From the IMG/VR virus record IMGVR_UViG_3300031521_000043, positions 1 through 64,000 of that record: DNA of 64,000 bases; one strand, written 5' to 3'. Positions 1 through 64,000 of the stretch are shown here, in pieces (the first letter of the stretch is position 1; each line of letters starts with the position of its first letter). Origin of the DNA: a virus. The notes under the pieces were generated by a model, which was not told where the DNA came from, did no database searches, and saw only the letters and a program-made list of their open reading frames with translations. The position numbers were made by a program, and so were the translations under genes.

Positions 1-947
1 TCTTTCCAGTTAGGACGTTTGACATAAACCTTATGTTCATTTAAGATTTCCAATCCCATTTTCATTAAACGAACTAGGTGTGATGCGTGTTTCGTATCAT
101 AACCTGACTTTACTTCAAGTTCATGTCTGGCAGGATTACGATTCTTTTTCCAATTTAACCAAGATTGATATGTTTCCAGTTCTTTCTTATACAATCTTTC
201 TCTATGCAGAATGTCAACAACTTCTTCTTTCCAATTGTATTCTTTGGCCAAACGTTCGATTACACCTGCTTCATAAACTTTTGGCCAATTACCTTCGTTA
301 ACGTTTACCTTGGAAACATTGAAAATGAGTTCCCACATTGTCGATTTTAGTTCATCACGTTCTTCTTCGTTTAATGGAAACTGTGAAAGATTCCAACGTT
401 CGACTTCGGACTTTATTAAACCGAAAATTTCTGTCATTTGTGACGCACGTTCCTCCGGCAAACCAAAATTGGTTCTATCAGGTTTTTCAATATCACCACG
501 AATAATCCATTTACGATGACGTTCAATTTTTGCTGCTTGAGCAAAGGCATATCCTGAAAATGTAAATTTAGCTTTTGAAGACAAAAACATTTCTTTATTT
601 GCCAGAAGTTCGTCCATCGGAGATTTTTCAATAAAGTGGTCGGTAGGGTCAGTCCATAAAACTTCGATGATGTTAGGGTTGACATTAGCTGCCAAGACCA
701 TAAACTTTTTCAAAGAAAAGACGGTAGATTCAAACTTTGGATTCTTTGGATTCTTCAAATGCGACAATGAAGTTTCAAGGTCAATGTTGTTTTCTGCTTG
801 TTCAAACTTGTGAAAAAGGTTGTTTTCTACCTCTTTTGGAGGGATGACAATGCCTTTAACGTCCACGTCAGATAGTTCGTTATTCAAACCATAAGCCTGT
901 GAACCGTGTAGAGTTACATAGATTGTATTTGGTAAAAGCCAATTCAT
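1..947 (-). CDS. Predicted nucleotidyltransferase (RlaP/Nuc-transf-like), 3' end truncated by the window edge
   Basis: Not in the ORF track because it runs off the edge. Manual translation gives MNWLLPNTIYVTLHGSQAYGLNNELSDVDVKG (GSxAYG...DxD Pol-beta motif), NPNIIEVLW and GYDTKHASHLVRL. Confidence 0.85.
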   Translation of the reverse strand, partial: MNWLLPNTIYVTLHGSQAYGLNNELSDVDVKGIVIPPKEVENNLFHKFEQAENNIDLETSLSHLKNPKNPKFESTVFSLKKFMVLAANVNPNIIEVLWTDPTDHFIEKSPMDELLANKEMFLSSKAKFTFSGYAFAQAAKIERHRKWIIRGDIEKPDRTNFGLPEERASQMTEIFGLIKSEVERWNLSQFPLNEEERDELKSTMWELIFNVSKVNVNEGNWPKVYEAGVIERLAKEYNWKEEVVDILHRERLYKKELETYQSWLNWKKNRNPARHELEVKSGYDTKHASHLVRLMKMGLEILNEHKVYVKRPNWK

Positions 948-956
948 AATAAACAA

Positions 957-984
957 AGTATATCAGTCATTTTATAAATGTCAA
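957..984 (-). promoter_or_regulatory. Sigma70-type early promoter
   Basis: TTGACA-16 nt-TATACT with an extended -10 TG, just upstream of the ATG at 947. Confidence 0.7.
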
Positions 985-1253
985 GCGTAACGTGTCGAAA
1001 TCCATCGGCGTAATTGTTCGTCGGATAGATGACTATTATTTTTAATAAATTGAATCATATCACATACGAACGATTGCCTTATAAGATTTTGACAGTCGGC
1101 AAGATGAATATCGAATTTATCACCACAATGACGTTCGTTATATTTCTGTGATTCAATGCCAAATCGTATTACACGTTCTTGAAAATATGATGACTCCCAC
1201 CGTGGAATATATTTTTCAAGATTATATTTTTTTATGATTTCTAAATCGGTCAT
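981..1253 (-). CDS. Hypothetical protein
   Basis: 90 aa ORF tightly packed in the minus-strand operon. Confidence 0.6.
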   Translation of the reverse strand: MTDLEIIKKYNLEKYIPRWESSYFQERVIRFGIESQKYNERHCGDKFDIHLADCQNLIRQSFVCDMIQFIKNNSHLSDEQLRRWISTRYA

Positions 1254-3751: not shown

Positions 3752-4731
3752 TGAAAAGGTAAAATACGTCCCCATTTTACCATTCTGAATGCCGATAAAT
3801 CATTGCCGCCGGCGTAAGATATGGAAGATTGGATTGATTCTTTTATTTCTATTAATCGTTGTTCATATGTGGTTCCTTCCACAAGTTCGATTTGTTTTCC
3901 TTCGATATGCTTTCTATGACCTTTTGATTCGTAAGAAGTTGACCCTCTATATACTTTTTTACCATCTATAATTTTTGCAGGAGAGTCAATACAAGAAGCA
4001 AACCAACCTCCACTCATGACCATAGTGGCGCCAAATGTAAGGGCCTTGGCAACGTCACCATAGTGTTTTGCCCCGCCATCCGCTATGATAGGAATAGCAT
4101 AACCAATTGATTCCATCGCATATTTTATAGACTGAAGAGTAGGTATATGAAATCCTGTCATATAACGTGTAGTACATATTGACCCTCCACCAATTCCTAC
4201 TTTTATAACATCTACTTTTAGTTTGGCCAAATATTCAACTCCTTCACAGGTTGCTACATTTCCAACAATAAGTCTTGTGTTTGGAAAGTTTTGTTTAATG
4301 TAGTTGATTGTAGATTTAACGTTTTCGTGATGCGCGTGCGCAATATCAATAGTGATAAAGTTAACTCTCATTCGTAATGCTTTAATTGTCATCAACTCTT
4401 TCATTGATGTTTCACTTACACCAGTCGATATGCTAATCAGCTTCCATTTTTCACTATTTGCTTTTTTAACGAAATATACGGTGTTTAAATCTGAATCAAC
4501 ATCTTCGTATGAAGATTGTCCAAATCTGTGATAGATATAAAAATAATCATTCTCTGAGAAAAACTTTGCCATAACAGGATTTATAACATCCTTCATATTA
4601 GCAGGAACCACTGGTATTTTAAATTTATATCCGCACAAAGTAACGGTGGTGTCAGCCTGACTTCTACTTGATAGAGAAGAATAATTTGGAAGTAGTGTTA
4701 CTGTATCGTAGGATAATAAAAAATCGTTCAT
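3748..4731 (-). CDS. guaC: GMP reductase (IMPDH/GMPR family)
   Basis: IDIAHAH, GNVAT, KVGIGGGSICTTR (catalytic Cys), IIADGG and SSISYAG motifs; no CBS domains. Confidence 0.85.
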   Translation of the reverse strand: MNDFLLSYDTVTLLPNYSSLSSRSQADTTVTLCGYKFKIPVVPANMKDVINPVMAKFFSENDYFYIYHRFGQSSYEDVDSDLNTVYFVKKANSEKWKLISISTGVSETSMKELMTIKALRMRVNFITIDIAHAHHENVKSTINYIKQNFPNTRLIVGNVATCEGVEYLAKLKVDVIKVGIGGGSICTTRYMTGFHIPTLQSIKYAMESIGYAIPIIADGGAKHYGDVAKALTFGATMVMSGGWFASCIDSPAKIIDGKKVYRGSTSYESKGHRKHIEGKQIELVEGTTYEQRLIEIKESIQSSISYAGGNDLSAFRMVKWGRILPFH

Positions 4732-8969: not shown

Positions 8970-9847
8970 TTTTTTATACTATTACGTATCTCTTTCAATA
9001 ATTCATAAGACAAAAGAACGACCATAACTTGATTATCTTTAACGACTTTTCCTGTTAATGGTTTTACTTTGTCCAATTGTCTAACTACTTCATTGATTTT
9101 GATTTTGATGACATCGTTATCGTTGATGCTTACGGATAGTTCATTTAATTGCTTTTTAACACCATCTACTTGACTTATCAAAAATGCTCCTAGTGAGTTT
9201 GTGTTTGAAATATTGTTAATGTATTCACGAAGAACATTTTTTTGATTTTCATCCAAATCTTTATATTTCTTGTTCATTCCTTCGACTAAAATTCGATATG
9301 ACAATAGACGAATATCTTCGTTTTGTTGTGCGTAGAAATTAAGAATGTCTTCTTCTTCGTTAATTTTCTTAGGTTTATCTACTATGTTTTCGATTATGCA
9401 TGTTTTAGCTTGATAAACTTCTTTTGCGTCGAATTTTAAATCTTTTGAAGATGCGTCCTCGAAGAGTTTGAATATAGAGGCCAAGCTTCGATAATTTTTA
9501 ATACTCGCTTTTAGAAAATCATCAATGGGATAAAGTTCTTTAATTTCTTTAATTAGTTCGTATTTTTCTTTAGAAAGTTTTAAGTTACTTAACTTTTTAC
9601 GTTGTTCGACAATAACAGATAAAAATCTGTCAGCATGTGATTCATCTTTTATCTTTTCAGACAAAAGAAAATTGTATAGTCTCCACTCTTTGCCTAATTC
9701 GGTATTTTCTTTGAAATACTTAAAGAGCAAATCTTTGGCTTCTGAATTTTCTTTTCCAGCGATGATGTCCGCCGTTATCTGTCTAGTTAACAGTTCAAAC
9801 AAAATCCCGGTGTTTTTAAACTTTGAATGGCGCAATTTTTTAAGCAT
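8966..9847 (-). CDS. Helical phage protein adjacent to the portal
   Basis: RHSKFKNTGILFELL N-terminus; position in the head module. Confidence 0.7.
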   Translation of the reverse strand: MLKKLRHSKFKNTGILFELLTRQITADIIAGKENSEAKDLLFKYFKENTELGKEWRLYNFLLSEKIKDESHADRFLSVIVEQRKKLSNLKLSKEKYELIKEIKELYPIDDFLKASIKNYRSLASIFKLFEDASSKDLKFDAKEVYQAKTCIIENIVDKPKKINEEEDILNFYAQQNEDIRLLSYRILVEGMNKKYKDLDENQKNVLREYINNISNTNSLGAFLISQVDGVKKQLNELSVSINDNDVIKIKINEVVRQLDKVKPLTGKVVKDNQVMVVLLSYELLKEIRNSIKK

Positions 9848-54305: not shown

Positions 54306-54497
54306 TCATTCAAATTCCCATAATTCCCATTTAGTCATTCCGATGGTTCCGGCAATCATTCCTATTAAGAATCCAAGAACTGCTGCAAGAATGATAGAAA
54401 TATTAAATAAGAATGATACCAATCCCCACATAGCAGAAACCACTATCATCGTAAATGACCATTTTAATATATTATTCCATTTCCAAATAGTTTTCAT
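54306..54497 (-). CDS. Small two-TM membrane protein
   Basis: Two hydrophobic helices. Confidence 0.55.
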   Translation of the reverse strand: MKTIWKWNNILKWSFTMIVVSAMWGLVSFLFNISIILAAVLGFLIGMIAGTIGMTKWELWEFE

Positions 54498-55177
54498 AAA
54501 TTTTCTTCTGTTTTTCTGAAGAACCACTTATCATATTCGCCACGACATGCGGCGTAATCTGCGCTGTGAATAATTCTTGGTAAGTTTGTTTTCAAATACA
54601 ATTCTTGATTATATTGTTTGAGATATTTTTCAGTTCCTTCGTTAAATAATCCGTCTGCCAATTTAATACCCAGATATTCTTTCCAATCGTAGACAACTCC
54701 ATATTTTTGTAGAAGATAAATTGCTCGGTCTGTGACTTCCATATAAGGAAGATTTGGATTCATTTTGTAGAATTCTCCCTTCTTATACTTCCAATCTTGG
54801 TCTTGTGGAGCATAGTATTCACCAAATTCAGGGTCACCTAATTTACCTAAATCGTGATGCATTGCAGCAAACACCATTTGTTCATCATTAAAATCTATTT
54901 TACATCCTGCAAGTTCAAAAAGTTTTTTAGAAGCGAATGACATTTTAATGACATTCATAATGTGTTGAAGATATCCGCCTGGATGGCATAAATGATAATG
55001 TTCACACATTGCAGCGGGAGCAGTAGCAAGTGATAGTCCTAATGCTCCGTCATCATCAGAATACATTTTAAGTAGTTTTGTTTTTCGTTCTCCTTTGAAG
55101 GTACTTCCGACAAACGATAGAAATTCTTGATAATTTTCTTGAATCTCTCCATCAGTTAAATTTGGCTTTTCAATCAT
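54494..55177 (-). CDS. HD-domain phosphohydrolase
   Basis: H..GGYLQH, HHDLGK and IIHSAD motifs. Confidence 0.85.
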   Translation of the reverse strand: MIEKPNLTDGEIQENYQEFLSFVGSTFKGERKTKLLKMYSDDDGALGLSLATAPAAMCEHYHLCHPGGYLQHIMNVIKMSFASKKLFELAGCKIDFNDEQMVFAAMHHDLGKLGDPEFGEYYAPQDQDWKYKKGEFYKMNPNLPYMEVTDRAIYLLQKYGVVYDWKEYLGIKLADGLFNEGTEKYLKQYNQELYLKTNLPRIIHSADYAACRGEYDKWFFRKTEENL

Positions 55178-55215
55178 ATAACACGAATATTAACAGAGAA
55201 TTAAGAATAATCAAT

Positions 55216-55359
55216 TTATTTTAAAAGAACAAGTTCTATCTCTTTTAAAATTTTACAACGATGTAATTTGGTTAATTTGTCTTCGTTTGGCCAAGGATGG
55301 TTGTAATCCATTTTTATTTTTTCTAATAATGTCCTTGTTTTTTTATTGAATAGTTTCAT
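55216..55359 (-). CDS. Small hypothetical protein (47 aa)
   Basis: Manual translation MKLFNKKTRTLLEKIKMDYNHPWPNEDK... Confidence 0.4.
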   Translation of the reverse strand: MKLFNKKTRTLLEKIKMDYNHPWPNEDKLTKLHRCKILKEIELVLLK

Positions 55360-55396
55360 ATCGAAGTTACTGAAGGAAGTCAAGAAGAATATAAAA

Positions 55397-55487
55397 TGGC
55401 GGATGACAAGAGAATCGAACTCTCACCGGCTTTTGACCGGAACTGTTTTCGAGACAGCCGCAACAAACCAATATTTGCCTATCATCC
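55397..55487 (-). tRNA. tRNA-Ser(CGA)
   Basis: Anticodon arm GCUGU-CUCGAAA-ACAGU; long variable arm; GCCA end. Confidence 0.9.
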
Positions 55488-55490
55488 AAA

Positions 55491-55658
55491 TTAACTTTTT
55501 AATCGTTTACGTCCATTACGACGGTGACATACAGAACACCTTTTCCAGGGACGAACGGCATCCATATCACAAATACAATAAAATAATTTTCGTCTAGGTG
55601 TTAAAACTTTATCACGATTAGTTTGAGGATAGTCATCATCATAATAACTTTGATTCAT
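55491..55658 (-). CDS. Small Cys-containing protein (55 aa)
   Basis: Manual translation ...FYCICDMDAVRPWKRCSVCHRRNGRKRLKS. Confidence 0.55.
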   Translation of the reverse strand: MNQSYYDDDYPQTNRDKVLTPRRKLFYCICDMDAVRPWKRCSVCHRRNGRKRLKS

Positions 55659-55659
55659 A

Positions 55660-55899
55660 TTAAAATCGTGAAAATCTCATTCGCTGATAATGATATTCCC
55701 AACAACCATTACAATTTTGTTTTGGTGGTTTTAAACCATTAAAATCTGGATGTAACTTACAATGTAAGTTTTCAATTCTATGACTTAAATCTAATGTTTC
55801 TATGTTAAATTGTTTACCATCTGGTAAAATAAAAGATACCGAACCTGTCTCTGGTTCCGTAATTTCTTTTACGAAAAATCTTTTTAACCAATTGAACAT
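55660..55899 (-). CDS. Hypothetical protein (start moved downstream of the tRNA)
   Basis: MFNWLKRFF...CKLHP..CNGCW. Confidence 0.55.
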   Translation of the reverse strand: MFNWLKRFFVKEITEPETGSVSFILPDGKQFNIETLDLSHRIENLHCKLHPDFNGLKPPKQNCNGCWEYHYQRMRFSRF

Positions 55900-55906
55900 A
55901 ATAAAT

Positions 55907-55998
55907 TGGCGGTTGCGATAGGATTTGAACCTACGGGCCGCCTTTCGACGACCTCCTGATTTCCAATCAAGTGCGATAGACCACTCTGCCACACAACC
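55907..55998 (-). tRNA. tRNA-Ser(GGA)
   Basis: CUUGA-UUGGAAA-UCAGG; long variable arm; GCCA end. Confidence 0.92.
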
Positions 55999-56002
55999 GA
56001 AG

Positions 56003-56165
56003 CAACGAATTTTATGAACCTTCAAGAATCTCGTCTTGATTACAAAGTCACGACTTGTGAATGTGACATCCTATCATGGTCTTCGGTGAAACTTAATCAC
56101 CTACTTATTTTTCATGATTTTCTTGAGTATAAAATACGTCAAGATTAAAATTTAGGTATTCGTTG
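56003..56165 (-). ncRNA. Candidate structured ncRNA of unknown family
   Basis: Closing stem CAACGAAU/AUUCGUUG with four internal hairpins; TTGACA-17-TATATT promoter upstream. Confidence 0.5.
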
Positions 56166-56203
56166 TTATGATATAAATATACCACACATTAGTAAGAATG
56201 TCA

Positions 56204-56242
56204 AAAAGAAAACGCTCATCGAAAATTATTTTTCAATGAGCG
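56204..56242 (-). terminator. Intrinsic terminator
   Basis: cgcucauugaaaa...uuuucgaugagcg followed by UUUUCUUUU. Confidence 0.7.
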
Positions 56243-56254
56243 AATTTGTTAACT

Positions 56255-56328
56255 TGGCTGAATCGGATGGAATCGAACCATCACCAGAACTTTCAGAGAG
56301 TCCTGCGCTACCACTACGCCACGATTCA
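56255..56328 (-). tRNA. tRNA-Gln(CUG)
   Basis: GGACU-CUCUGAA-AGUUC; GCCA end. Confidence 0.92.
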
Positions 56329-56334
56329 ATACAA

Positions 56335-56478
56335 TTAAAGCTTTACGCCGGCTTTTTCAGCAGCAGCTTTAACAGCGGTCAATTCTTTTTCGACAATTGC
56401 TTTGTTCTTACGACCAAAGAGTACGCCGAAAACGAAAGCGCCGACACCTACAACTGCCACAACTACGATAGTAATCAT
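56335..56478 (-). CDS. Small single-TM protein (47 aa)
   Basis: MITIVVVAVVGVGAFVFGVLFGRKNK...; TATTTATA upstream. Confidence 0.6.
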   Translation of the reverse strand: MITIVVVAVVGVGAFVFGVLFGRKNKAIVEKELTAVKAAAEKAGVKL

Positions 56479-56572
56479 ATATTTTCCTTTTTTATTTCGT
56501 TAATTTTATTTCAACTAACCACTGTGGTCAGTATCTATAAATATATGACTGAGAATGTAAAAACACTAAAAT

Positions 56573-56646
56573 TGGTGGAGCCACTGAGAATCGAACTCAG
56601 GCCTTTTCATTGCGAGTGAAACGTATTTCCACTTTACCATGACCCC
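56573..56646 (-). tRNA. tRNA-Ala(CGC)
   Basis: UUUCA-CUCGCAA-UGAAA; G3:U70; ACCA end. Confidence 0.92.
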
Positions 56647-56670
56647 AAAGTCTTCCAAAAAAGGAAGACA

Positions 56671-56825
56671 CTAGATACAGAATTTAAGGTTATCTCCTAA
56701 GCCCTTTTTACAACTTACTTCTGTTGAGCGTTTTTAACGTAGCCACTGCTACGACCTGTCATCGACAGGATTTATCCCTTACGGGTTGTTTTTTAGTATA
56801 ATTTTTATTGCTGTGACCGTATCTA
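56671..56825 (-). ncRNA. ACAGCAA-stem ncRNA, long form
   Basis: UAGAUACGG-UC-ACAGCAA...CUGUAUCUAG enclosing several hairpins; motif repeated at 60578-60640. Confidence 0.6.
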
Positions 56826-56829
56826 AAAT

Positions 56830-56904
56830 TGGTGGAGCCACCGGGAATCGAACCCGAATCCTATCACTGCCAGCGATATGTCCTACCGTTGAACGATGAC
56901 CCCC
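56830..56904 (-). tRNA. tRNA-Ala(GGC)
   Basis: UAUCG-CUGGCAG-UGAUA; G3:U70; ACCA end. Confidence 0.92.
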
Positions 56905-56907
56905 ATT

Positions 56908-57173
56908 AATAACGTAGCCGTAGCCGCGGTTCTGTTTTTATCTTTACATTTATCTCAGACTTCTTTCGAAGTAAGTCCCTTACGGGATGCCTCAACCCGG
57001 ACTTTTACAACGGGAAACATTACCCTTTGTCCTGTTTGAGTTGCTCCTAATTTGTGGTGTTAACGGGCGTCTTGTTCTCCAGACTCTACCCTCCCAATCA
57101 TCTGTTTTGGAGCCGCGAACTTCCTCTAATAGTGTTTGTTAACAAGTATCAGCGTAAAGTCGCTTGCGTCATT
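56908..57173 (-). ncRNA. rnpB: RNase P RNA, compact, with reduced specificity domain
   Basis: CR-I GAGGAAGUUCGCGGCUCC, CR-IV AGAUAAAU and CR-V ACAGAACCGCGGCUA. P2 CUUUACG/UGUAAAG, P4 with bulged U, P5 CUCC/GGAG and P15 CUCAA/UUGAG all pair. Confidence 0.9.
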
Positions 57174-57194
57174 AAATCTCAAAGAACTGTAATA

Positions 57195-57222
57195 ACTATA
57201 CTTCAAAATTCTCAAATGTCAA
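57195..57222 (-). promoter_or_regulatory. Sigma70-type promoter for the RNase P RNA/tRNA transcript
   Basis: TTGACA-16 nt-TATAGT. Confidence 0.7.
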
Positions 57223-57228
57223 GCGTGA

Positions 57229-57615
57229 TTACTTTTCACCAAATCTTTGAACGGTTTTAATGCCTACAATACCTATCAAAATTTCTACTATTTCTTGTGG
57301 TAAAGATGGAATCGTATAAACTCCATGACATATACCAACAATATATGCTAGTAACCAAATAATAAATACTCCACATCCCCACAATAACATTAAAATACGA
57401 ATAGATGAAACTCCGCCTGTATTATCTTGAATCATACTTGAAAATACGTTTACTTTATTATCATTTCCATTTATTACTGTTGTAGAAGAAATATTAGTTC
57501 CAGAATTTACGACGGGCATTTGAACTGTTTGTGTTGGTTGAGTTACAACATTACCATCGGAATTTGGCTGAACAAATCCAGCTTGTGTCATCTCATCCTG
57601 TGAAATATTTATCAT
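57229..57615 (-). CDS. Two-TM membrane protein (holin-like)
   Basis: SSIR followed by two TM segments and a QRFGEK end; TATTTATA 3 nt before the ATG. Confidence 0.55.
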   Translation of the reverse strand: MINISQDEMTQAGFVQPNSDGNVVTQPTQTVQMPVVNSGTNISSTTVINGNDNKVNVFSSMIQDNTGGVSSIRILMLLWGCGVFIIWLLAYIVGICHGVYTIPSLPQEIVEILIGIVGIKTVQRFGEK

Positions 57616-57630
57616 ATTTATAAATATATA

Positions 57631-57663
57631 AAAAAACGTATCAATAATTTATCATTGATACGT
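57631..57663 (-). terminator. Intrinsic terminator after the tRNA run
   Basis: acguaucaau/auugauacgu stem followed by a U tract. Confidence 0.75.
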
Positions 57664-57671
57664 CTTAAATT

Positions 57672-57748
57672 TGGTGGCGCCTATGAGATTCGAACTCATA
57701 CATTCTACTTTCTCAGAGTAGCGACTCCTACCGTTGGTCTAAAGCGCC
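57672..57748 (-). tRNA. tRNA-Leu(GAG), short variable loop
   Basis: CUACU-CUGAGAA-AGUAG; ACCA end. Confidence 0.85.
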
Positions 57749-57752
57749 GAAA

Positions 57753-57830
57753 TGGTATGCGTGACAGGACTCGAACCTGTGATAAATCTCGGTGTAAACG
57801 AGACGCCGTTGCCGCTGGAGCCACACGCAC
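57753..57830 (-). tRNA. tRNA-Val(UAC)
   Basis: UCUCG-UUUACAC-CGAGA; ACCA end. Confidence 0.9.
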
Positions 57831-57839
57831 ATTAAAAAC

Positions 57840-57917
57840 TGGTCGGAATGGTGGGATTCGAACCCACGACCCCCTGCGCCCAAGGCAGGTGCGCTAGCCA
57901 AGCTGCGCTACATTCCG
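57840..57917 (-). tRNA. tRNA-Pro(UGG)
   Basis: CCUGC-CUUGGGC-GCAGG; C1:G72; ACCA end. Confidence 0.95.
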
Positions 57918-57926
57918 AAATAAAAT

Positions 57927-58018
57927 TGGCGGAGTAGAAGGGATTTGAACCCTCATTGCTTTTTAGGGCAAACAAGTTTAGCAAACTTGCGCTACCAGCC
58001 GTATTAGCCTCTAACTCC
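57927..58018 (-). tRNA. tRNA-Ser(GCU)
   Basis: CAAGU-UUGCUAA-ACUUG; long variable arm; GCCA end. Confidence 0.9.
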
Positions 58019-58181
58019 ATTATAACATTGATATTTTATAGTGATTCAAGGTCTAACCACTGCCGAATTAGCAATTTTCGGTTTCCCTTTATAAGGGCAA
58101 ATTGGCCGCTCTATTTTACCCTCACTCACAGTCGTAAATCGCTGTATAGAGTTAAAGGATTGATACGGAATTACGATAAAT

Positions 58182-58274
58182 TGGCGGTTGGAGAGGGATT
58201 CGAACCCCCGGCACGTTTTTAGGGTGCTATAGTTTTCAAGACTATCGCCATAAGCCGGACTCGGCCACCCAACC
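58182..58274 (-). tRNA. tRNA-Ser(UGA)
   Basis: AUAGU-CUUGAAA-ACUAU; long variable arm; GCCA end. Confidence 0.93.
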
Positions 58275-58323
58275 GTATGTCAATAACTATATCATCAATT
58301 ACAAAATAGTCAATAATAAAATG

Positions 58324-58425
58324 TGAATAATTAGAAAAGGATTCGAACCTTCGGTCAATCCACTTAAGGATTCGACATGACGTTCAATCGCCAATACAAT
58401 AAACCACTCTGACACCTAATCATTC
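58324..58425 (-). ncRNA. Atypical class-II tRNA-like RNA or pseudo-tRNA
   Basis: Good D-loop and GUUCGAAU T-loop, but a 6-nt anticodon loop, an 11-bp acceptor-like stem and no CCA. Confidence 0.6.
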
Positions 58426-58453
58426 GTTTGTTTGTTAACAATCAAACATTTAT

Positions 58454-58696
58454 TCATATAGACAAATGTGTTTTAGACCATATTCTTAATTTAATATACC
58501 ATATTATCATGTTCAATTTAAATTTTGAATAATAACGTGGTATAAAATATCTAACTTCGTATTTTAAATAACTTTTTATCGTGATTGGATAATAATAAGT
58601 TAATATATGTTTATAAAAATGATATCTTGATTTATGATGTTCTTTATGTTCATCATACCTTACTACAAACTGATTTTTAAAACATGTATTAAACAT
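58454..58696 (-). CDS. Hypothetical Tyr/Lys-rich protein
   Basis: 80 aa ORF. Confidence 0.4.
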   Translation of the reverse strand: MFNTCFKNQFVVRYDEHKEHHKSRYHFYKHILTYYYPITIKSYLKYEVRYFIPRYYSKFKLNMIIWYIKLRIWSKTHLSI

Positions 58697-58714
58697 AAAT
58701 TATTTTAAGGTCTA

Positions 58715-58865
58715 TTAACAATCAAATATTTGTTGATATTTTCCAATGGTCATATGAAAACACTTTATATGACCTGAAGGTGGTAATGTATACTTACTAT
58801 AAATCGACATACCAAGTTCTTCTCTAATTTTTTCTAATCTTTTCTTGATGTCAAAGGTCGATTCA
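58715..58865 (-). pseudogene. C-terminal remnant of a 2H phosphoesterase
   Basis: KRLEKIREELGMS...CFHMTIGK resembles ERIEDVREELGL...WHLTIGN of 59671-60051; in-frame TAG upstream and no first His motif. Confidence 0.6.
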
Positions 58866-59028
58866 ATCTACCTTCAAGAGTTGGCCATTTTGGAGTCAAT
58901 TTTACAACATTTTTTCCATGTCTCCCACATTCATAACATATTGCGTCGGGATACTTTTCTAATTCTTCTGGTGTCACGTTATCACACCATTTACAATCGT
59001 CGTATTTTTCCATGTCTGATATTATCAC
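58834..59028 (-). CDS. Small Zn-finger protein
   Basis: CKWC..CYEC motifs. Confidence 0.5.
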   Translation of the reverse strand: MIISDMEKYDDCKWCDNVTPEELEKYPDAICYECGRHGKNVVKLTPKWPTLEGRLNRPLTSRKD

Positions 59029-59058
59029 ACTTTATAAATATGTCAAGCGTTCAAATTA

Positions 59059-59134
59059 TGGCGGGATGAAGGAGATTCGAACTCCCGGTCTGTTGCGGGA
59101 CAGGCAACCGCTTTAGCCACTAAGCTACCATCCC
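59059..59134 (-). tRNA. tRNA-Asp(GUC)
   Basis: GUUGC-CUGUCCC-GCAAC; GCCA end. Confidence 0.93.
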
Positions 59135-59674
59135 AAAATTTACTTTATAGATTTCTCTAATGGCATCTTTACCATTTTCTTGTAATTCTCTAGTTCCGAT
59201 GCCGGCAAAATTCTGTGTCAATTTTGGAACATAATCAATTACTTCAAATTCTTCTTTTTCATAATTGAATTTATTCCAATTATTATTTTCTTGGTCAAAA
59301 AAGAAGATTGGTTTTTTATTATCAATCCCCATTTGAACGGCCCAACCCGTTCCTCCTGATACAATTTTTCGATTAATAAATTTACCGACGGCAAATATTG
59401 CATCCGAATTTTTAACCTGAAACCAATTCCTACAAATTAAATTTTTTACATAGGGCCAACGAACATTTGGATTTCTACCAATACCTTTTGAGGCAATTTT
59501 AACGGCTTCAAAACCTTCATCTAATTCTGGACGTTCAAGAATTTTTCTATTCTTACCTTGTTGAGTATGACCGTAAAAAGAATAAGCGATGGTGGTTACT
59601 CCATAATTATTGGCTTCATTTTCCCAGAACATATCGGAGCCAGGGCATCCGCCGCTATGACAAGTGTAATTCAT
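59120..59674 (-). CDS. SLOG/DprA-like nucleotide-binding protein
   Basis: HSGGCPGSD, RNWFQV..SDAIFAV, GGTGWAV and AGIGTR motifs. Confidence 0.7.
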   Translation of the reverse strand: MNYTCHSGGCPGSDMFWENEANNYGVTTIAYSFYGHTQQGKNRKILERPELDEGFEAVKIASKGIGRNPNVRWPYVKNLICRNWFQVKNSDAIFAVGKFINRKIVSGGTGWAVQMGIDNKKPIFFFDQENNNWNKFNYEKEEFEVIDYVPKLTQNFAGIGTRELQENGKDAIREIYKVNFGMVA

Positions 59675-60051
59675 AAATTTTTTAAGTTTCCTATGGTTAA
59701 GTGCCATGGAATTGGAATTCTTCTTGGTAATCCAAGTTCTTCACGAACATCTTCGATTCGTTCACATTTCACAGGCAACCAGAAATATTCTCCATCATTT
59801 TCTACTTCCTGACAATACTGAAAATCAATTTGGCTGTCTTGGTATTTATTCCAAAATTGTTTATGGTATTCGTCTATTATTTCATATTTTCCTGCAATAA
59901 CAGAGATATGGGCACCATGCATAGGAGGATTCAAATTCATATGACGACAATGCATATTGAGTAAATGACTGTAATATTCACAGATATCACTCTCAACATA
60001 TATCATTAACCATGTTTTGTGGTAATGCAATTTTCCTTTGCAATGGAACAT
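59671..60051 (-). CDS. 2H phosphoesterase
   Basis: Two Hx[S/T] motifs, HISV and HLTI; start corrected to MFHCKG. Confidence 0.75.
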   Translation of the reverse strand: MFHCKGKLHYHKTWLMIYVESDICEYYSHLLNMHCRHMNLNPPMHGAHISVIAGKYEIIDEYHKQFWNKYQDSQIDFQYCQEVENDGEYFWLPVKCERIEDVREELGLPRRIPIPWHLTIGNLKNL

Positions 60052-60057
60052 AAAAAT

Positions 60058-60184
60058 TGGTGGGGAAGGTTCGACTTGAACGAACAAATAGATATGCGAC
60101 TTACTGGATATGCGTCTTTATCTACAATTTTAGCACACTATGTATCCAACCGTGCGCTGCGTTTACCTATTTCGCCACTTCCCC
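60058..60184 (-). ncRNA. CCA-ended tRNA-like RNA with an expanded anticodon/variable domain
   Basis: Acceptor GGGGAAG/CUUCCCC-ACCA, Leu-type D arm, T arm GUUCG-UUCAAGU-CGAAC and a 13-nt anticodon loop. Confidence 0.75.
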
Positions 60185-60209
60185 AAATTGTCGTATTGTA
60201 TAAAATTAA

Positions 60210-60327
60210 AGAGGATTTCACTACAAGTTCCATTCAAGTTGACCGTGATGCCGTTTCACGCACCTGCCCATATGGTGGGCAAGCCTGGATTTGAACCAAG
60301 AACGTCGTTATCAATGTCTATCTCTCT
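60210..60327 (-). ncRNA. Circularly permuted tRNA-like RNA (scaffold unit B)
   Basis: Order is T arm, CUUGCCC-ACCA-UAU-GGGCAGG, D arm, enclosed by GAUAGACAUU...GAAUGGAA..GUGAAAUCC. Confidence 0.75.
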
Positions 60328-60328
60328 T

Positions 60329-60449
60329 CAGGGGATTTCACGAATCGTCTCCGTCGAGACACATTCCATTCTTTTATGATTTGAACATAACTTCCAGCCT
60401 TCACGGCTAGCGTGCTACCAGATTACACCATTTAGAATGTCTATCCCTG
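60329..60449 (-). ncRNA. tRNA-like RNA lacking an acceptor end (scaffold unit A)
   Basis: D arm, anticodon-like arm and T arm (UUAUG-UUCAAAU-CAUAA) inside the same scaffold as unit B. Confidence 0.7.
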
Positions 60450-60499
60450 TTTAGCTAAAATTAACTATTTGTACTGTCTTCAAATGCCTTTTCATAAAT

Positions 60500-60573
60500 T
60501 GGTGCATCCACCCGGAATCGAACCGAGATTAATAGGGTAAAAGCCTATCAGCTTACCATTGACTTATGGATGC
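60500..60573 (-). tRNA. tRNA-Lys(UUU)
   Basis: AUAGG-CUUUUAC-CCUAU; ACCA end. Confidence 0.92.
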
Positions 60574-60577
60574 TTTA

Positions 60578-60640
60578 CAAGATACCATCTTTTTAGTTCT
60601 GCGTATTAGGCGGATTTATTTTGATTGCTGTTGGTATCTT
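60578..60640 (-). ncRNA. ACAGCAA-stem ncRNA, short form
   Basis: AAGAUACCA-ACAGCAA...UGGUAUCUUG. Confidence 0.55.
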
Positions 60641-60645
60641 AAAAT

Positions 60646-60719
60646 TGGCGGACGATGTATACTCGTCATTATTATCATCCTATGGTGCTAACTCCACCAG
60701 CAGATTCAGACGACCATCC
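60646..60719 (-). ncRNA. CCA-ended tRNA-sized RNA without canonical D/T loops
   Basis: GGAUGGU/AUCGUCC-GCCA acceptor; UGGUG-7 nt-CACCA hairpin. Confidence 0.5.
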
Positions 60720-60725
60720 GTAAAG

Positions 60726-60809
60726 CTCCGGCCGAGGGACTTGAACCCCCATAGACCTTTTGGGTCACTGATTAACAATCAGTTGCATTACCTATTATGC
60801 TAAACCGGA
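60726..60809 (-). tRNA. tRNA-Asn(GUU) with long variable arm and no encoded CCA
   Basis: ACUGA-UUGUUAA-UCAGU; variable arm GACC-CAAAA-GGUC; U1:A72 and G73. Confidence 0.85.
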
Positions 60810-60810
60810 A

Positions 60811-61242
60811 TTAAAATCTTTCTGCTGCATGGATTTCTCCATGACAATTATGACACAACAGTTGACACTTATCAACTTCATTTTTTTGTCGTTCAAATGA
60901 CAACGTTGTTCCACTAATCTGAAAATCTTTTTCTTTTGGGTCTAAATGATGAAATGAAAGACAATTTATACATTTATTGTATCCACAAATTTCACATTTT
61001 CCACCTTTATATTCTACAAGTTTTTGTTTAACACGTGTTCTCCATGTTACAACTCGGTTTACTGCTCGATTTTTTCTTTCTTCGTTTGAAATATTTTTCG
61101 GTTGTCTAGTCTTTAAATATTTAATCAAACTTGGCCTTGACCAAGAAAATTTAATTTGAACTTGTCTTAATGAATTTCCTTCATCATAGAATTTCTGCAT
61201 CAATTCTATTTCTACTGACGTTGGTTTTGTATTCTTTACCAT
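60811..61242 (-). CDS. HNH endonuclease with N-terminal HTH
   Basis: CEICGY..FHHLDP..LLCHNCHGEIH. Confidence 0.88.
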   Translation of the reverse strand: MVKNTKPTSVEIELMQKFYDEGNSLRQVQIKFSWSRPSLIKYLKTRQPKNISNEERKNRAVNRVVTWRTRVKQKLVEYKGGKCEICGYNKCINCLSFHHLDPKEKDFQISGTTLSFERQKNEVDKCQLLCHNCHGEIHAAERF

Positions 61243-61294
61243 ATGGTTAATAACTATTATTAACCAATCGGTAAATGTAATTTTATTTTTTAAA

Positions 61295-61368
61295 TGGTAG
61301 CCCGAAGAGGACTTGAACCTCTAACTTCACGCCTATCAAGCATGCATTCTACCTTGAATTACCGGGCC
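61295..61368 (-). tRNA. tRNA-Ile(GAU)
   Basis: CAUGC-UUGAUAG-GCGUG; ACCA end. Confidence 0.9.
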
Positions 61369-61379
61369 ATTAAAATGTT

Positions 61380-61468
61380 GTTCCGTAACCACGGAATATA
61401 GTATTTGAAACTTATCGGGTTGACGATTGTGGAATCATCAACATGAACTTTGCGTTCACTTACGGAAC
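61380..61468 (-). ncRNA. Cloverleaf-like ncRNA of unknown family
   Basis: GUUCCGUAA/UUACGGAAC stem closing three hairpins, one with a UUCAAAU T-loop. Confidence 0.55.
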
Positions 61469-61534
61469 TGAAATTCATTCTTCAAATAACTGTCAATATA
61501 CTATCATGGATATTGAAGTTGTCAAGCGTGGAAA

Positions 61535-61614
61535 TGGTGGAACAGATGGGAGTTAAACCCATATAGTTCGTTTACTTCGTAACGCCATTATGCCTACGGA
61601 AGCTTTACTGTCCC
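61535..61614 (-). ncRNA. Mini alanine-acceptor (tmRNA TLD-like) RNA
   Basis: GGGACAG/CUGUUCC-ACCA with G3:U70; T arm present; no D stem. Confidence 0.6.
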
Positions 61615-61619
61615 TAAAA

Positions 61620-61689
61620 TGGTGGAGGTTTGAGGATTTTTACCCCACGTTCTATTGTCGCCCGAACAAGGCTTATCCTACATACTCCC
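61620..61689 (-). pseudogene. Degenerate tRNA-like element ending CUCCACCA
   Basis: T-like arm UGGGG-UAAAAAU-CCUCA; poorly paired acceptor. Confidence 0.4.
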
Positions 61690-61732
61690 GGCATAGGATA
61701 ATACTTTCTGAACATCACTCAATATTCATAAA

Positions 61733-61897
61733 TTATTTTAAAATCTTCAATACTAATCGAGCTTTCTTTAACTTTTGTTCGGTTTTAGAATACTCTTCTT
61801 TACTAACATTCTTTTTATAGTTTTCACTATTCAAACGTTTTTCAAGAAAGGCAATATAATCTATTTCTTGTTTAATTCGTTTTTCTTTTGCGTTCAT
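61733..61897 (-). CDS. Small basic helical protein (54 aa)
   Basis: Manual translation MNAKEKRIKQEIDYIAFLEKRLNSENYKK... Confidence 0.55.
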   Translation of the reverse strand: MNAKEKRIKQEIDYIAFLEKRLNSENYKKNVSKEEYSKTEQKLKKARLVLKILK

Positions 61898-61902
61898 AAA
61901 TT

Positions 61903-61976
61903 TGGTCGGTAAAATGAGGCTTTAACTCATATCTCATGTCCCAGTGACATGCGCTTTTCATTTTAGCTATTTACCG
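61903..61976 (-). tRNA. Atypical tRNA: Pro-type acceptor, anticodon loop CACUGGG
   Basis: All four stems pair; C1:G72 and ACCA; A at position 33; D-loop lacks GG. Confidence 0.6.
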
Positions 61977-61981
61977 AAATA

Positions 61982-62074
61982 TGGTCGGCGTGGAGGGAGT
62001 CGAACCCACGTTGTAGCATTACCATGTAATAGATTTTAAGTCTATCGCGTTTCAGCCAGCTTCGCCACACGCCG
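61982..62074 (-). tRNA. tRNA-Leu(UAA)
   Basis: AUAGA-CUUAAAA-UCUAU; long variable arm; ACCA end. Confidence 0.9.
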
Positions 62075-62081
62075 ATTAAAT

Positions 62082-62158
62082 TGGTAGTGGTAAAGAGAGT
62101 CGAACTCTTAAAATCATTATTTTGAGTAATGAATGTCTTCCAGTTGCATCATACCACC
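62082..62158 (-). tRNA. tRNA-Leu(CAA), short variable loop
   Basis: CAUUA-CUCAAAA-UAAUG; ACCA end. Confidence 0.85.
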
Positions 62159-62218
62159 ATTAAAATTTGTCTTCTTCTCCCTACACGGGCTACCGGCATA
62201 ACTGCCGCCGACTGAAAT

Positions 62219-62294
62219 TGGGGTGAGTAGGGGGAATCGAACCCGCCATAGGTAGCTTCACAGGCCACGACATTACCACTATGCTATACTCACC
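62219..62294 (-). tRNA. tRNA-His(GUG)
   Basis: GUGGC-CUGUGAA-GCUAC; G-1:C73; CCA end. Confidence 0.93.
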
Positions 62295-62349
62295 ATTAAA
62301 ATTGTTTATTTACTGTTTATTTACTGTTTATAATAAGCCCGTTCTACTT

Positions 62350-62586
62350 ATGCTCATGAATTTTACCGATGAACAATTAAAAAAAGAAAAACAAAATATT
62401 ATTATATTGATTATTTTGACTGTTATTTGGTTTGGTTTTTTTCTTCATAATTCGATTACTGTAAACAAACAGTACGTTCAAATGGAACAAATTTCACAAA
62501 CCATAGCAACTAACAGTCAACAAATTCTTAAAACTCAAGAACTTATCTTAGAAAAAGAATTGTTACTCATCGAACTTCAAAAATAA
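62350..62586 (+). CDS. Single-TM coiled-coil protein (start corrected to avoid the tRNA)
   Basis: IIILIILTVIWFGFFL followed by a Gln-rich coiled coil. Confidence 0.6.
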   Translation: MLMNFTDEQLKKEKQNIIILIILTVIWFGFFLHNSITVNKQYVQMEQISQTIATNSQQILKTQELILEKELLLIELQK

Positions 62587-62588
62587 AT

Positions 62589-62662
62589 TGGTAGCCCTAC
62601 GGAGAATCGAACTCCGGCTACATGCTTGAGAAGCATTTGTCCTTCCACTAGACGACAGGGCC
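62589..62662 (-). tRNA. tRNA-Glu(CUC)
   Basis: AAUGC-UUCUCAA-GCAUG; ACCA end. Confidence 0.9.
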
Positions 62663-62670
62663 ATTTTTAG

Positions 62671-62940
62671 AAAAGAATAATATGCTATTACGCCAAAAGA
62701 ACGGTTTCCCCAATTTTTATTATTGGTGACGACATACCAATGTTATTTCACTGGTTTTTACTGTCACAAAGTATTGTTGTCCTCCTGTCCTTCAACCGAA
62801 TACGTCGGCCTTCATATTTGTTATCAACCTTCACAATATTACAGTGGAAACTACTTTACGCCGATTCCACAAATAGACTAGGAGACTTGTTTCTACTTAT
62901 TATAGGATGGCTGCCTCTAAGCCCACCTTTTATTACTTTT
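62671..62940 (-). ncRNA. 23S rRNA L11-binding domain (H42-H44) mimic with a large insertion
   Basis: 5' GGUGGGCUUAGAGGCAGCCAUCC and 3' GGCGUAAUAGCA closed by AGUAAUA/UAUUAUU. Confidence 0.8.
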
Positions 62941-62941
62941 A

Positions 62942-63472
62942 CTAAATTGTTCCCACATACATACCCATGATAATCGCGGCACACGAACCGACGTTTAATG
63001 AACGAACTGTACCACGAGCAGGAATAGTAACTATTCTTTCTGAATTGTCAAGCATGTATTCTGATAATCCGAGTTGTTCTTCGCCGACCATAAAGATTGG
63101 TGGTAACTTTAAATTACTAAAAGGATTATCATATATTGATACCGTCTTAGATTCAAACTTAGGAATATTATTTTCTACGGAAACTAAAGAATACTTTCCA
63201 TTTATAAATTCCATAAAAGATTCTTCGGTTCTAATATAGACAGTCGGAATATAATGATGTGTTCCGACTGTACTTCGACGGTCATACTGTTTTGAACCAC
63301 CGACATAACAAAATTCACTAAATCCAAAAAAGTTGGCAGAACGTATACAATTTCCTAAATTAAAATCACCTGTCACGTGCGCCATACCAAATGCTGCCTT
63401 ATGAGAATGGTCAGAATAACTTTCCTTGATTTCTTCAACCGACAGTGACTTTAAGTAATCGTGAACATTCAT
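62942..63472 (-). CDS. SpoU/TrmH-family RNA 2'-O-methyltransferase
   Basis: NLGNCIRSA, VGEEQLGLS and IPARGTVRSLNVG SPOUT motifs. Confidence 0.92.
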   Translation of the reverse strand: MNVHDYLKSLSVEEIKESYSDHSHKAAFGMAHVTGDFNLGNCIRSANFFGFSEFCYVGGSKQYDRRSTVGTHHYIPTVYIRTEESFMEFINGKYSLVSVENNIPKFESKTVSIYDNPFSNLKLPPIFMVGEEQLGLSEYMLDNSERIVTIPARGTVRSLNVGSCAAIIMGMYVGTI

Positions 63473-63485
63473 AATTTTATTTTGT

Positions 63486-63764
63486 TTATCTAATTTTTTT
63501 CCATGACCCTAATTCATATTTTTCTAAATTTGATGTGATAAGATTATCATTACTGTCGGCCAAATAAAAATGGTCTTCCGGAATATATTTTCCTTTATAT
63601 AAATGAAATAATGTTACACGAAATGGCCAACTATTTGGATTGTCATTTGAATTAGAAATGGCCGGACTAAATATAGCTCGCCACACTTTACCATAGTTTG
63701 ACACACATTCAAATTCTTTTCCGTTTTCATAACGACCTTCTAATATCAATTTTAATTTAATCAT
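63486..63764 (-). CDS. Hypothetical protein
   Basis: 92 aa; MIKLKLILE leader. Confidence 0.55.
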   Translation of the reverse strand: MIKLKLILEGRYENGKEFECVSNYGKVWRAIFSPAISNSNDNPNSWPFRVTLFHLYKGKYIPEDHFYLADSNDNLITSNLEKYELGSWKKIR

Positions 63765-63793
63765 ATCAATAAATATTGAAGAATTTGTTTAAA

Positions 63794-63867
63794 TGGTATT
63801 CCGAAGGAGAATCGAACTCCTTTATTCGCATGGAAAGTGCGATGTATTACCATTATACGACCGGAAC
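63794..63867 (-). tRNA. tRNA-Glu(UUC)
   Basis: UCGCA-CUUUCCA-UGCGA; ACCA end. Confidence 0.88.
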
Positions 63868-63874
63868 ATAAAGT

Positions 63875-63950
63875 TGGCAGCCCTACTCGGAGTCGAACCG
63901 AGTTCGCCGGAATGAAAGTCCAGCATCCTTTCCTATTAGACGATAGGGCC
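63875..63950 (-). tRNA. tRNA-Glu(UUC), second copy
   Basis: CUGGA-CUUUCAU-UCCGG; GCCA end. Confidence 0.9.
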
Positions 63951-64000
63951 ATTCATGGATGTTTGATTGACGTCCTCACAGGGAACTTATCATTACTATA

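Follow-up and report, generated by a model that had tools for sequence, protein, structure and literature searches.

The transfer RNA (tRNA) cluster of phage T4 encodes two co-transcribed stable RNAs to which no function has been assigned. Other structured RNAs have been found among viral tRNA genes: GOLLD is described as lying inside a '32 tRNA cluster' (PMC6582537), and the theta ribozymes, which are like that of hepatitis delta virus (HDV), are presented as small structured RNAs beside viral tRNA genes, with a link to the maturation of tRNAs (PMC10879173). For T4, the formation of dimeric pre-tRNAs is mentioned (PMC11143913). We analyzed a tRNA gene array of an uncultivated phage (IMG/VR virus record IMGVR_UViG_3300031521_000043), in which two non-tRNA members were identifiable: a reduced ribonuclease P (RNase P) RNA, and a copy, hereafter the mimic, of helices 42-44 of 23S ribosomal RNA (rRNA), i.e. 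the GTPase-associated centre or L11 stalk. The stretch examined, called the window in what follows, comprises bases 1-64000 of this 73,489-base record.

The RNase P RNA of the window shares with the type A RNA (RF00010) helices P1-P5, including the P4 pseudoknot, the conserved regions (CR) I, IV and V, and P15-P18, P18 being capped by a GNRA loop. Like the archaeal type T RNAs, as these are described in one report (PMC7191817), it has lost most of its specificity domain. It differs from both types by being encoded in phage tRNA arrays and by its CR-I, which reads GAGGAAGUUC. The mimic resembles the 23S GTPase-associated centre by its helix 43 and helix 44 loops and by a closing stem that keeps the helix 42 register, and R1, a covariance model of phage mimics, recognizes the 23S element itself (Table 1); the mimic differs by an inserted helix with a variable domain. 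Ribosomal-protein leaders such as the L10 leader also mimic rRNA. The phage mimic is distinct from these, and from the 23S centre, in being free-standing in tRNA arrays rather than an operon leader or a part of rRNA.

As with GOLLD, structured non-tRNA RNAs stand here amid co-oriented tRNAs; GOLLD, however, is unlike the array RNAs in sequence and structure, and the contig L137 contains both GOLLD and the mimic, at separate places. The elements of the island are comparable to theta ribozymes as small structured RNAs beside viral tRNA genes, but they match no known self-cleaving family. In the T4 cluster, too, stable non-tRNA RNAs share transcription and processing with the tRNAs of the phage, as would be the case here; the T4 RNAs are without identity, whereas an RNase P RNA and a copy of an rRNA domain can be identified in the present array. 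The literature searched (full text, few subscription journals, no supplements) yielded neither a phage-encoded RNase P RNA nor a phage copy of the GTPase-associated centre, and a prior description is possible. Both RNAs represent widespread unannotated phage classes, absent from the Rfam 15 matches and from this literature.

A preliminary description of positions 55397-63950 had seen there 20 ordinary tRNAs interleaved with an RNase P RNA, an rRNA-domain mimic and further structured RNAs. This observation was confirmed as a whole, and it understated the case. ARAGORN found 22 tRNA genes in the window, 20 of which reached the gathering score of Rfam RF00005 (intron-mode calls of the program were set aside as implausible). 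The two below this score were 58327-58422, which is considered later, and 55397-55487, a class-II tRNA-Ser(CGA) whose top Rfam match was tRNA-Sec (36.3 bits, cut-off 47). The region makes up the initial 8.5 kb of a 14.4-kb array that extends beyond the window to record position 69826 and contains 38 ARAGORN tRNAs in total. CCA is encoded in 36 of the 38, and an AUUU-type trailer follows in 30 of these 36 (by our reading); NCCA-AUUU ends are also found on non-tRNA elements of the array. All the RNAs, including the 22 window tRNA genes, were indeed co-oriented, on the minus strand. The spacers between them are not uniformly short, as had been claimed: the shortest has 4 nt and the longest about 640 nt, and some contain protein genes. 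A syntenic relative, the 16.5-kb contig L003, consists of a tRNA array throughout, with 36 tRNAs, and encodes a SpoU protein 81% identical to that of the window.

In a permissive search, the entire RNaseP_bact_a model (positions 1-367) could be aligned to the 268 nt of the RNase P RNA (45.3 bits, E 1.2e-11). The specificity domain (P7-P14) is not complete: 110 model positions correspond to 22 nt in the Rfam alignment, and about 60 nt separate the two P5 strands. The GGU that matches the P15/16 consensus, and which we take to be the CCA-binding site, is kept in the same alignment. The RNA ends 1 nt short of tRNA-Ala(GGC), and a longer homologue is present at the same place in L003. A search of the L003 contig with RF00010 did not yield any match to that homologue. 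More generally, Rfam missed seven of the eight homologue loci searched (the single match, in L020, was of type B, with 58.8 bits), and RF00010 gave no match in five phage records, including that of L007, though one of them holds an RNA validated by its P4 pairing. We attribute these blanks to the insensitivity of the RF00010 model.

Homologues were sought in IMG/VR with pattern scans for CR-IV and CR-V, followed by a filter on an upstream GAGGAA, in which the 8 nt after GAGGAA had to pair with the 8 nt after ACAGAA. This yielded 25 further non-redundant RNase P RNAs (26 with the window copy), the chance of matching seven P4 pairs being, by our own estimate, about 0.001 per candidate. The distance from CR-I to CR-IV was 119-326 nt in the 25 homologues that were fetched and 170 nt in the window copy. 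A co-oriented tRNA started 26-34 nt past the ACAGAA of CR-V in 8 of the 26 and was present within 400 nt in 17. The CR-I variant was also searched for among prokaryotes (one genome for each of 185,579 species), where none of 14 pattern matches qualified as an RNase P RNA: they had no downstream CR-IV or CR-V and no nearby tRNAs, and their number was about that expected by chance. No match was obtained in a blastn search of the RNA against cultured phages.

Covariation in homologues, which the preliminary description had named as a test, was strong. When 16 of the shorter RNase P homologues were aligned, 87.5% of the paired cells were filled with pairs, compared with 64.1% in shuffles, and the covariation score amounted to 0.631 as against 0.206 ± 0.022, a value that none of 500 shuffles reached (slid controls, at most 0.19). 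The P4 pseudoknot, with its bulged U, lies outside the scored structure of the Rfam model; its eight pairs were formed in 99.2% of cells, with double-sided changes in four. Such changes were also found in 9/9 pairs of P1, 5/6 of P2 and 4/4 of P5. The RNA at 56905-57172 thus appears to be a genuine, reduced RNase P RNA belonging to a phage-specific clade.

Two other phage loci bear on the diversity of these RNAs. The 77-kb viral contig L113 contains (9376-9703, minus strand) a type A RNase P RNA that reaches a full score, 263.7 bits, and stands in a dense tRNA array that also has the rRNA mimic, and so phage-borne RNase P RNAs range from a full to a minimal form. In L020 (IMGVR_UViG_3300028591_000212; 767-1056, minus strand), the gene has a circularly permuted look: a segment with CR-IV and CR-V precedes the 5' strand of P2, P3 and CR-I, and the downstream CR-I strand is a perfect pairing partner for the 8 nt that follow ACAGAA. 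The type B match mentioned above (model positions 11-317) has at its end, right where a tRNA starts, a second CR-IV, and the whole unit is flanked by tRNAs.

As to the second RNA, the top rRNA similarity in the island was found with short-word BLAST between 62900-62926 and nt 1059-1085 of E. coli 23S rRNA (rrnH operon), which are identical at 23 of 27 positions (E 0.023) and correspond to helix 43. The mimic extends from the SpoU stop codon to a point 5 nt short of tRNA-Glu(CUC). It consists, in this order, of a long closing stem in the helix 42 register, the helix 43 copy, a junction, an inserted stem with a variable domain, the helix 44 hairpin and the 3' strand of the closing stem, the inserted helix sitting between the equivalents of 23S nt 1089 and 1090. 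When the 18-nt core of helix 43 was sought in IMG/VR, at least 119 loci were found. Among the matches listed, none of 120 lay inside a long rRNA alignment, and a copy of the helix 44 loop followed 73-378 nt downstream of the core in 70 of 96 unique flanked instances.

The alignment of 34 phage mimics showed 79.2% paired cells (58.6% when shuffled) and a covariation score of 0.537, compared with 0.161 ± 0.014 in 500 shuffles, none of which reached the observed value, and with at most 0.21 in slid controls. Double-sided changes were present in 14/14 pairs of the closing stem and 4/4 of the insert stem, while the helix 43 and helix 44 loops are near-identical to rRNA and almost invariant among the mimics. 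On the strength of this covariation and of the lack of any listed match inside an rRNA gene, a captured rRNA fragment or a contamination was rejected. R1 was built from these 34 sequences, the window copy being excluded. The latter fits the consensus and has an A-U in place of the invariant G-C pair equivalent to 1087-1102. Its R1 score, as well as those of two cultured phages, exceeds that of 23S rRNA (Table 1).

We found at least 100 non-redundant copies of the mimic in viral contigs and cultured phages. tRNAs were present in 75 of 100 non-redundant loci among the matches listed, within 1 kb in 66, and 601 of the 602 tRNAs of these loci were on the strand of the mimic. In GenBank, jumbo phages of Cronobacter, Serratia, Erwinia and Xanthomonas have the mimic in gaps of their annotation, and phages of Pseudomonas (pf16 among them), Aeromonas and Paenibacillus have it too, again without annotation. 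No rRNA family of Rfam was found in the window. At E up to 10, the window mimic was not covered by any Rfam family, L10_leader included, nor did any cover the mimic in 14 other loci at gathering thresholds, among the 150 of 158 matches listed. No L11 domain was encoded in the five phage records examined, so that any L11 partner would be that of the host; an L12 domain was encoded in one of the five.

We then considered how the RNAs of the island might be produced. A consensus scan found 55 promoter-like sites (34.7 ± 5.6 in shuffles) and 15 terminator-like sites (5.1 ± 2.3). Apart from the site upstream of the RNase P RNA (Table 1), the top promoter-like sites on the minus strand were at 56204 before tRNA-Ser(GGA), 61525 before tRNA-Ile, 59046 before a small zinc-ribbon open reading frame (ORF) and 58313 before tRNA-Ser(UGA). 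With at least five strong promoter-like sites on this strand and two terminator-like ones, the island would be a series of multi-gene units and no single polycistron. The preliminary description had envisaged polycistronic transcripts cut by tRNA-processing enzymes. The cutting is plausible in view of the NCCA-AUUU ends and of the RNase P RNA abutting a tRNA. Because the RNAs are co-oriented, CCA/AUUU ends recur and the RNase P RNA abuts the 5' end of a tRNA, it is a reasonable inference that the array RNAs are excised by tRNA-processing enzymes and that the phage-borne RNase P RNA is used for this purpose.

The explanation that we favor, and that we consider on balance probable, is a multi-promoter tRNA array with a reduced RNase P RNA, whose catalytic domain is intact, and a presumably trans-acting rRNA mimic. 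The array would be transcribed from several sigma-70-type promoters as multi-gene precursors, which would be cut at the 5' and 3' ends of the tRNAs. The RNase P RNA would be made from its own promoter, and the cut by which RNase P forms the 5' end of the adjoining tRNA-Ala would give it its 3' end. The reduced RNA, presumably catalytic, would most likely partner with the RNase P protein of the host and thereby raise or secure the 5' processing of the phage pre-tRNAs. The mimic would be freed from the same kind of precursor and would most likely act in trans by binding what normally recognizes helices 42-44; candidates are uL11, uL10-bL12, a translational GTPase, a stringent factor, or a molecule directed against this site. 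The tRNA-like and other structured RNAs may be co-processed passengers, at least one of them a decaying tRNA. Identity, structure, conservation and genomic association are what the data show; expression, processing, catalysis and binding partners are deduced from them.

A more specific version of this explanation would see two phage RNA devices acting on the translation apparatus: a self-liberating minimal RNase P that frees tRNA maturation from host rnpB, and a copy of the GTPase centre that acts in trans to titrate a host factor. The latter may be uL11 or uL10-bL12, with consequences for stringent signalling or ribosomal-protein feedback, or else some toxin or antibiotic directed against helices 43/44. 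We regard this version as tentative and doubt it somewhat more than we believe it; if it were true, the mimic would represent a class of RNA new to phage takeover or counter-defence.

Several findings speak against the explanation that we favor. The score of the RNase P RNA lies far below the gathering score of RF00010, which is 100. Its CR-I reads GAGGAAGUUCG instead of the Rfam consensus GAGGAAAGUCC, and the nucleotides altered here are, to our knowledge, universally conserved, so that catalysis is not assured. No RnpA gene (PF00825) was found in the 73-kb record, which is about 21% complete. No RNA run was among the runs found to contain the sequence, a result that says nothing on expression. 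The low score and the altered CR-I, as well as the loss of most of the specificity domain, would also suit a dead RNase P mimic, one that would titrate host RNase P protein or pre-tRNAs and so slow down host tRNA maturation or regulate that of the phage itself. We think this unlikely, since the catalytic core, including P4 with its bulged U, has been kept by compensatory changes in the 16 homologues. In addition, the GGU of the P15/16 region is kept in an array in which nearly all tRNAs encode CCA. Furthermore, type T RNAs that have no specificity domain are reported to be active (PMC7191817).

With respect to the mimic, L003 and other close relatives do not have it, although L003 has the RNase P RNA; it therefore seems to be dispensable or mobile within this phage group. 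Its adjacency to the SpoU gene is not conserved either, and a coupling between the two was rejected for this reason. This bears on whether the mimic could be a cis-regulatory site through which a neighboring gene, such as that of SpoU, is autoregulated in the manner of ribosomal-protein leaders, rather than a free RNA. SpoU-family thiostrepton-resistance methylases act on the same rRNA loop, which, with the position of the mimic at the SpoU stop codon, makes such a role conceivable, as does its position after a 2'-5' RNA ligase gene in phage XacN1. We nevertheless consider it very improbable: no protein family, defence-related or other, recurred as a neighbor (the largest ORF cluster comprised 5 of 100 loci among the matches listed), the SpoU orthologue of L003 is not followed by a mimic, the window SpoU protein is a catalytic domain alone, and the only consistent neighbors are co-oriented tRNA genes. 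In XacN1 (L233, 150244-150606), the mimic directly follows the ligase gene, whose annotation corresponds to a 2H-family enzyme; the window island also has a 2H gene, which is not beside the mimic.

A third point concerns the tRNA-like RNAs. A scan for a T-arm plus an acceptor stem recovered the ARAGORN tRNAs and three further elements of the window (61535-61614, 60058-60184 and 60363-60439), which do not have normal anticodon loops. The first two keep NCCA and the usual trailer of the array, and CCA is absent from the third. No homologues of the first two were found among the fetched loci, including L003 and the contig L234. The preliminary description had counted at least seven non-canonical tRNA-like RNAs. 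Six could be supported, namely these three and three aberrant tRNAs (58327-58422, 60725-60809 and 55397-55487); three more CCA-ended candidates, 60646-60722, 61620-61732 and 58103-58181, were weak by their fold z-scores (-1.5, -0.6 and -0.7, respectively).

It is a serious possibility, although we lean slightly the other way, that the non-canonical tRNA-like RNAs are for the most part tRNA genes in decay and hairpins due to chance, with no function of their own. The lack of homologues of 61535-61614 and 60058-60184 in L003 and L234 is in keeping with this, as are the z-scores of the three weak candidates. Similarly, 58327-58422, which does not outdo shuffled sequences in its folding and has neither CCA nor a normal anticodon loop, has as its L003 counterpart a tRNA-Ser(UGA) by ARAGORN, and looks like a decaying tRNA-Ser. 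On the other hand, four copies from three phages show the conservation of the long-arm tRNA-Asn, compensatory changes being present in 16 of 23 pairs (60725-60809 in the window, 4186-4276 and 4405-4490 in L003, 620-710 in L234). The window copy alone does not encode CCA, and the amino acid may be Asn, or Ser through the long arm. Furthermore, all three elements from our scan have z-scores below -2.7, two of them having NCCA and the usual trailer, and 60363-60439 lies inside a motif conserved in other phages.

This motif, a three-way junction present in tandem, and the RNA in the spacer between two tRNA-Ala genes (Table 1) account for the further structured RNAs that had been announced. In the three-way junction, the closing stem covaries and the junction nucleotides are conserved; one of the arms may be missing, short or enlarged to a tRNA-like domain. 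The tandem pair is also found upstream of the 2H gene in L234 (2340-2580), the closing stem being compensatory, and single copies are present in L044, L270 and L325, that of L325 without an insert. A pattern scan gave 117 loci, of which five had the upstream half and three were convincing. The motif did not fit a hammerhead by eye and did not match E. coli 5S rRNA with blastn. GOLLD, ROOL, HDV-like ribozymes and L10_leader were not among the 43 Rfam matches obtained at E up to 10 over 54500-64000.

The preliminary description had proposed that the non-tRNA RNAs serve as decoys or effectors that blunt host defences cutting tRNAs or attacking the ribosome. Thiopeptides are reported to bind helices 43 and 44 of the rRNA centre and a bacterial ADP-ribosyltransferase toxin to target helix 44, at bases 1095-1098 (PMC8661411). 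A decoy role would agree with the existence of such agents, with the near-invariance of both loops in the mimic, and with the presence of RNA repair-type genes (2H, SpoU) in the island. We think it improbable: no defence system that hits this rRNA site during phage infection was found in the literature searches aimed at the site, no context related to anticodon nucleases was found, and the tRNA-like RNAs, having no normal anticodon loops, would be poor mimics of anticodon-nuclease substrates.

Table 1. Coordinates of the features of the tRNA gene array (positions of the window unless another source is named) and scores obtained with the covariance model R1.
Feature	Coordinates	Strand	Basis or remark
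tRNA gene array, window part	55397..63950	-	22 ARAGORN tRNAs, 20 at Rfam tRNA gathering score
Reduced type-A-like RNase P RNA, 268 nt	56905..57172	-	Rfam RNaseP_bact_a, P4 pairing, covariation
Mimic of 23S helices 42-44 (GTPase-associated centre, L11 stalk) with ~170-nt inserted arm	62667..62943	-	BLAST, covariance model, covariation
R1 score, window mimic	62667-62943	-	79.3 bits, E 1.5e-22
R1 score, Xanthomonas phage XacN1			90.7 bits
R1 score, Cronobacter phage GAP32			84.0 bits
R1 score, E. coli 23S rRNA	nt 1042-1117		54.2 bits
Sigma-70-type promoter-like site	57195..57222	-	TTGACA, 16 nt, TATAGT; 11/12; upstream of RNase P RNA; conserved in L003
Terminator-like hairpin	57633..57666	-	After tRNA-Leu(GAG)
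Terminator-like hairpin	56213..56242	-	After tRNA-Gln
Conserved structured RNA between tRNA-Ala(GGC) and tRNA-Ala(CGC), 183-nt spacer, then hairpin	56647..56829	-	12/41 predicted pairs compensatory, 4 sequences
tRNA-like RNA, 7-bp acceptor stem, one long central hairpin, T-arm, ACCA	61535..61614	-	z -2.74
tRNA-like RNA, 127 nt, cloverleaf, oversized anticodon loop, 38-nt extra arm, ACCA	60058..60184	-	z -2.84
tRNA-like element without CCA, acceptor stem and T-arm	60363..60439	-	z -3.18
Tandem three-way-junction motif, two copies	60210..60449	-	Variable arm of copy 1 is 60363-60439; arm of copy 2 with T-arm-like hairpin
tRNA-Asn(GUU), long variable arm, U1-A72, G73	60725..60809	-	ARAGORN
Degenerate tRNA, without CCA	58327..58422	-	ARAGORN 'tRNA-???'; below Rfam score; z -0.71
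SpoU/TrmH-family 2'-O-methyltransferase, 176 aa	62942..63472	-	Pfam SpoU_methylase, 73.3 bits, E 2.8e-20
2H phosphoesterase-like protein	59671..60052	-	Two H-x-S/T motifs, HISV and HLTI
DprA-like (SLOG-type Rossmann) protein, 195 aa	59120..59707	-	phrog_768, E 1.4e-17; no Pfam or NCBIfam match
HNH endonuclease	60811..61242	-	In segment absent from L003

Three protein genes of the island had been named TrmH, a 2H phosphoesterase and a SLOG-like gene. The first belongs to the SpoU_methylase family and consists of the catalytic domain (residues 31-169 of 176). It missed the NCBIfam equivalogs by a wide margin (TrmH, 27.3 bits vs 227; RlmB, 48.5 vs 160; TrmL, 31.4 vs 190.6), so that TrmH can only be kept as a family-level label. 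The second is a candidate 2H phosphoesterase: the two motifs are present in its translation, and the Pfam 2H-SAK score (24.3 bits) remains under the cut-off of 27; the protein matches PHROG 12204, for which no function is named (E 6e-25). Its likely start is the ATG at 60052, the alternative TTG at 60087 being one that would overlap a tRNA-like RNA. The SLOG-like gene is a candidate DprA-like one by its PHROG match, and no Pfam or NCBIfam match was found. Together, the three proteins are in line with a theme of RNA modification or repair.

The only sizeable plus-strand ORF of the island, 62281-62586, fills the gap between tRNA-His and tRNA-Glu(CUC); its product is small (about 77 aa from an internal Met), has a hydrophobic stretch and is absent from L003. 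Bordering the array on the minus strand, 54494-55177 encodes a 227-aa protein with an HHDLGK (HD-type) motif, which had no Pfam or NCBIfam match and only an unnamed PHROG; the DNA identity of its gene is about 79% in L048, L085 and L041 and about 71% in L097, four relatives that match 54500-57200. A segment of about 60645-61617 is missing from L003, where its flanks are contiguous. It contains a tRNA-like RNA, a promoter, tRNA-Ile, the HNH gene, the long-arm tRNA-Asn and the CCA-ended 60646-60722, and its absence from L003 suggests an insertion linked to the HNH gene. Past the window, at record positions 66638-66726 (L002 3639-3727), ARAGORN called an 89-nt tRNA-Lys(UUU) whose top Rfam match was transfer-messenger RNA (tmRNA; 34 bits, E 9e-11, under the cut-off of 47). 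Complete tmRNAs were found in other phage arrays (L144, L152).

The source of the array is a huge uncultivated phage from peat metagenomes. CheckV gave a completeness of 21% for the record, and the full genome therefore probably amounts to several hundred kb. All 24 sequencing runs found to contain its sequence in whole or in part are DNA runs labelled as peat metagenomes, and at least half of the sampled words occur in eight of them. A megablast search of the island against cultured phages gave no match.

RNase P RNA is, as far as we know, treated as a hallmark of cells. The minimized RNase P RNAs borne by phages, at least 26 of them non-redundant and one apparently circularly permuted, are natural experiments on the minimal RNA of this ribozyme. 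Both classes of RNA are open to study: culturable phage-host pairs are available for the mimic, and the RNase P RNA can be expressed heterologously. Either could be entered in RNA family libraries. The RNase P RNA family suggests that phages see to the maturation of their tRNAs themselves. The mimic is a precise and strongly covarying copy of a functional site that ranks among the most conserved in the ribosome, and its partner could reveal a new phage control of translation, of the stringent response or of ribosomal-protein feedback.

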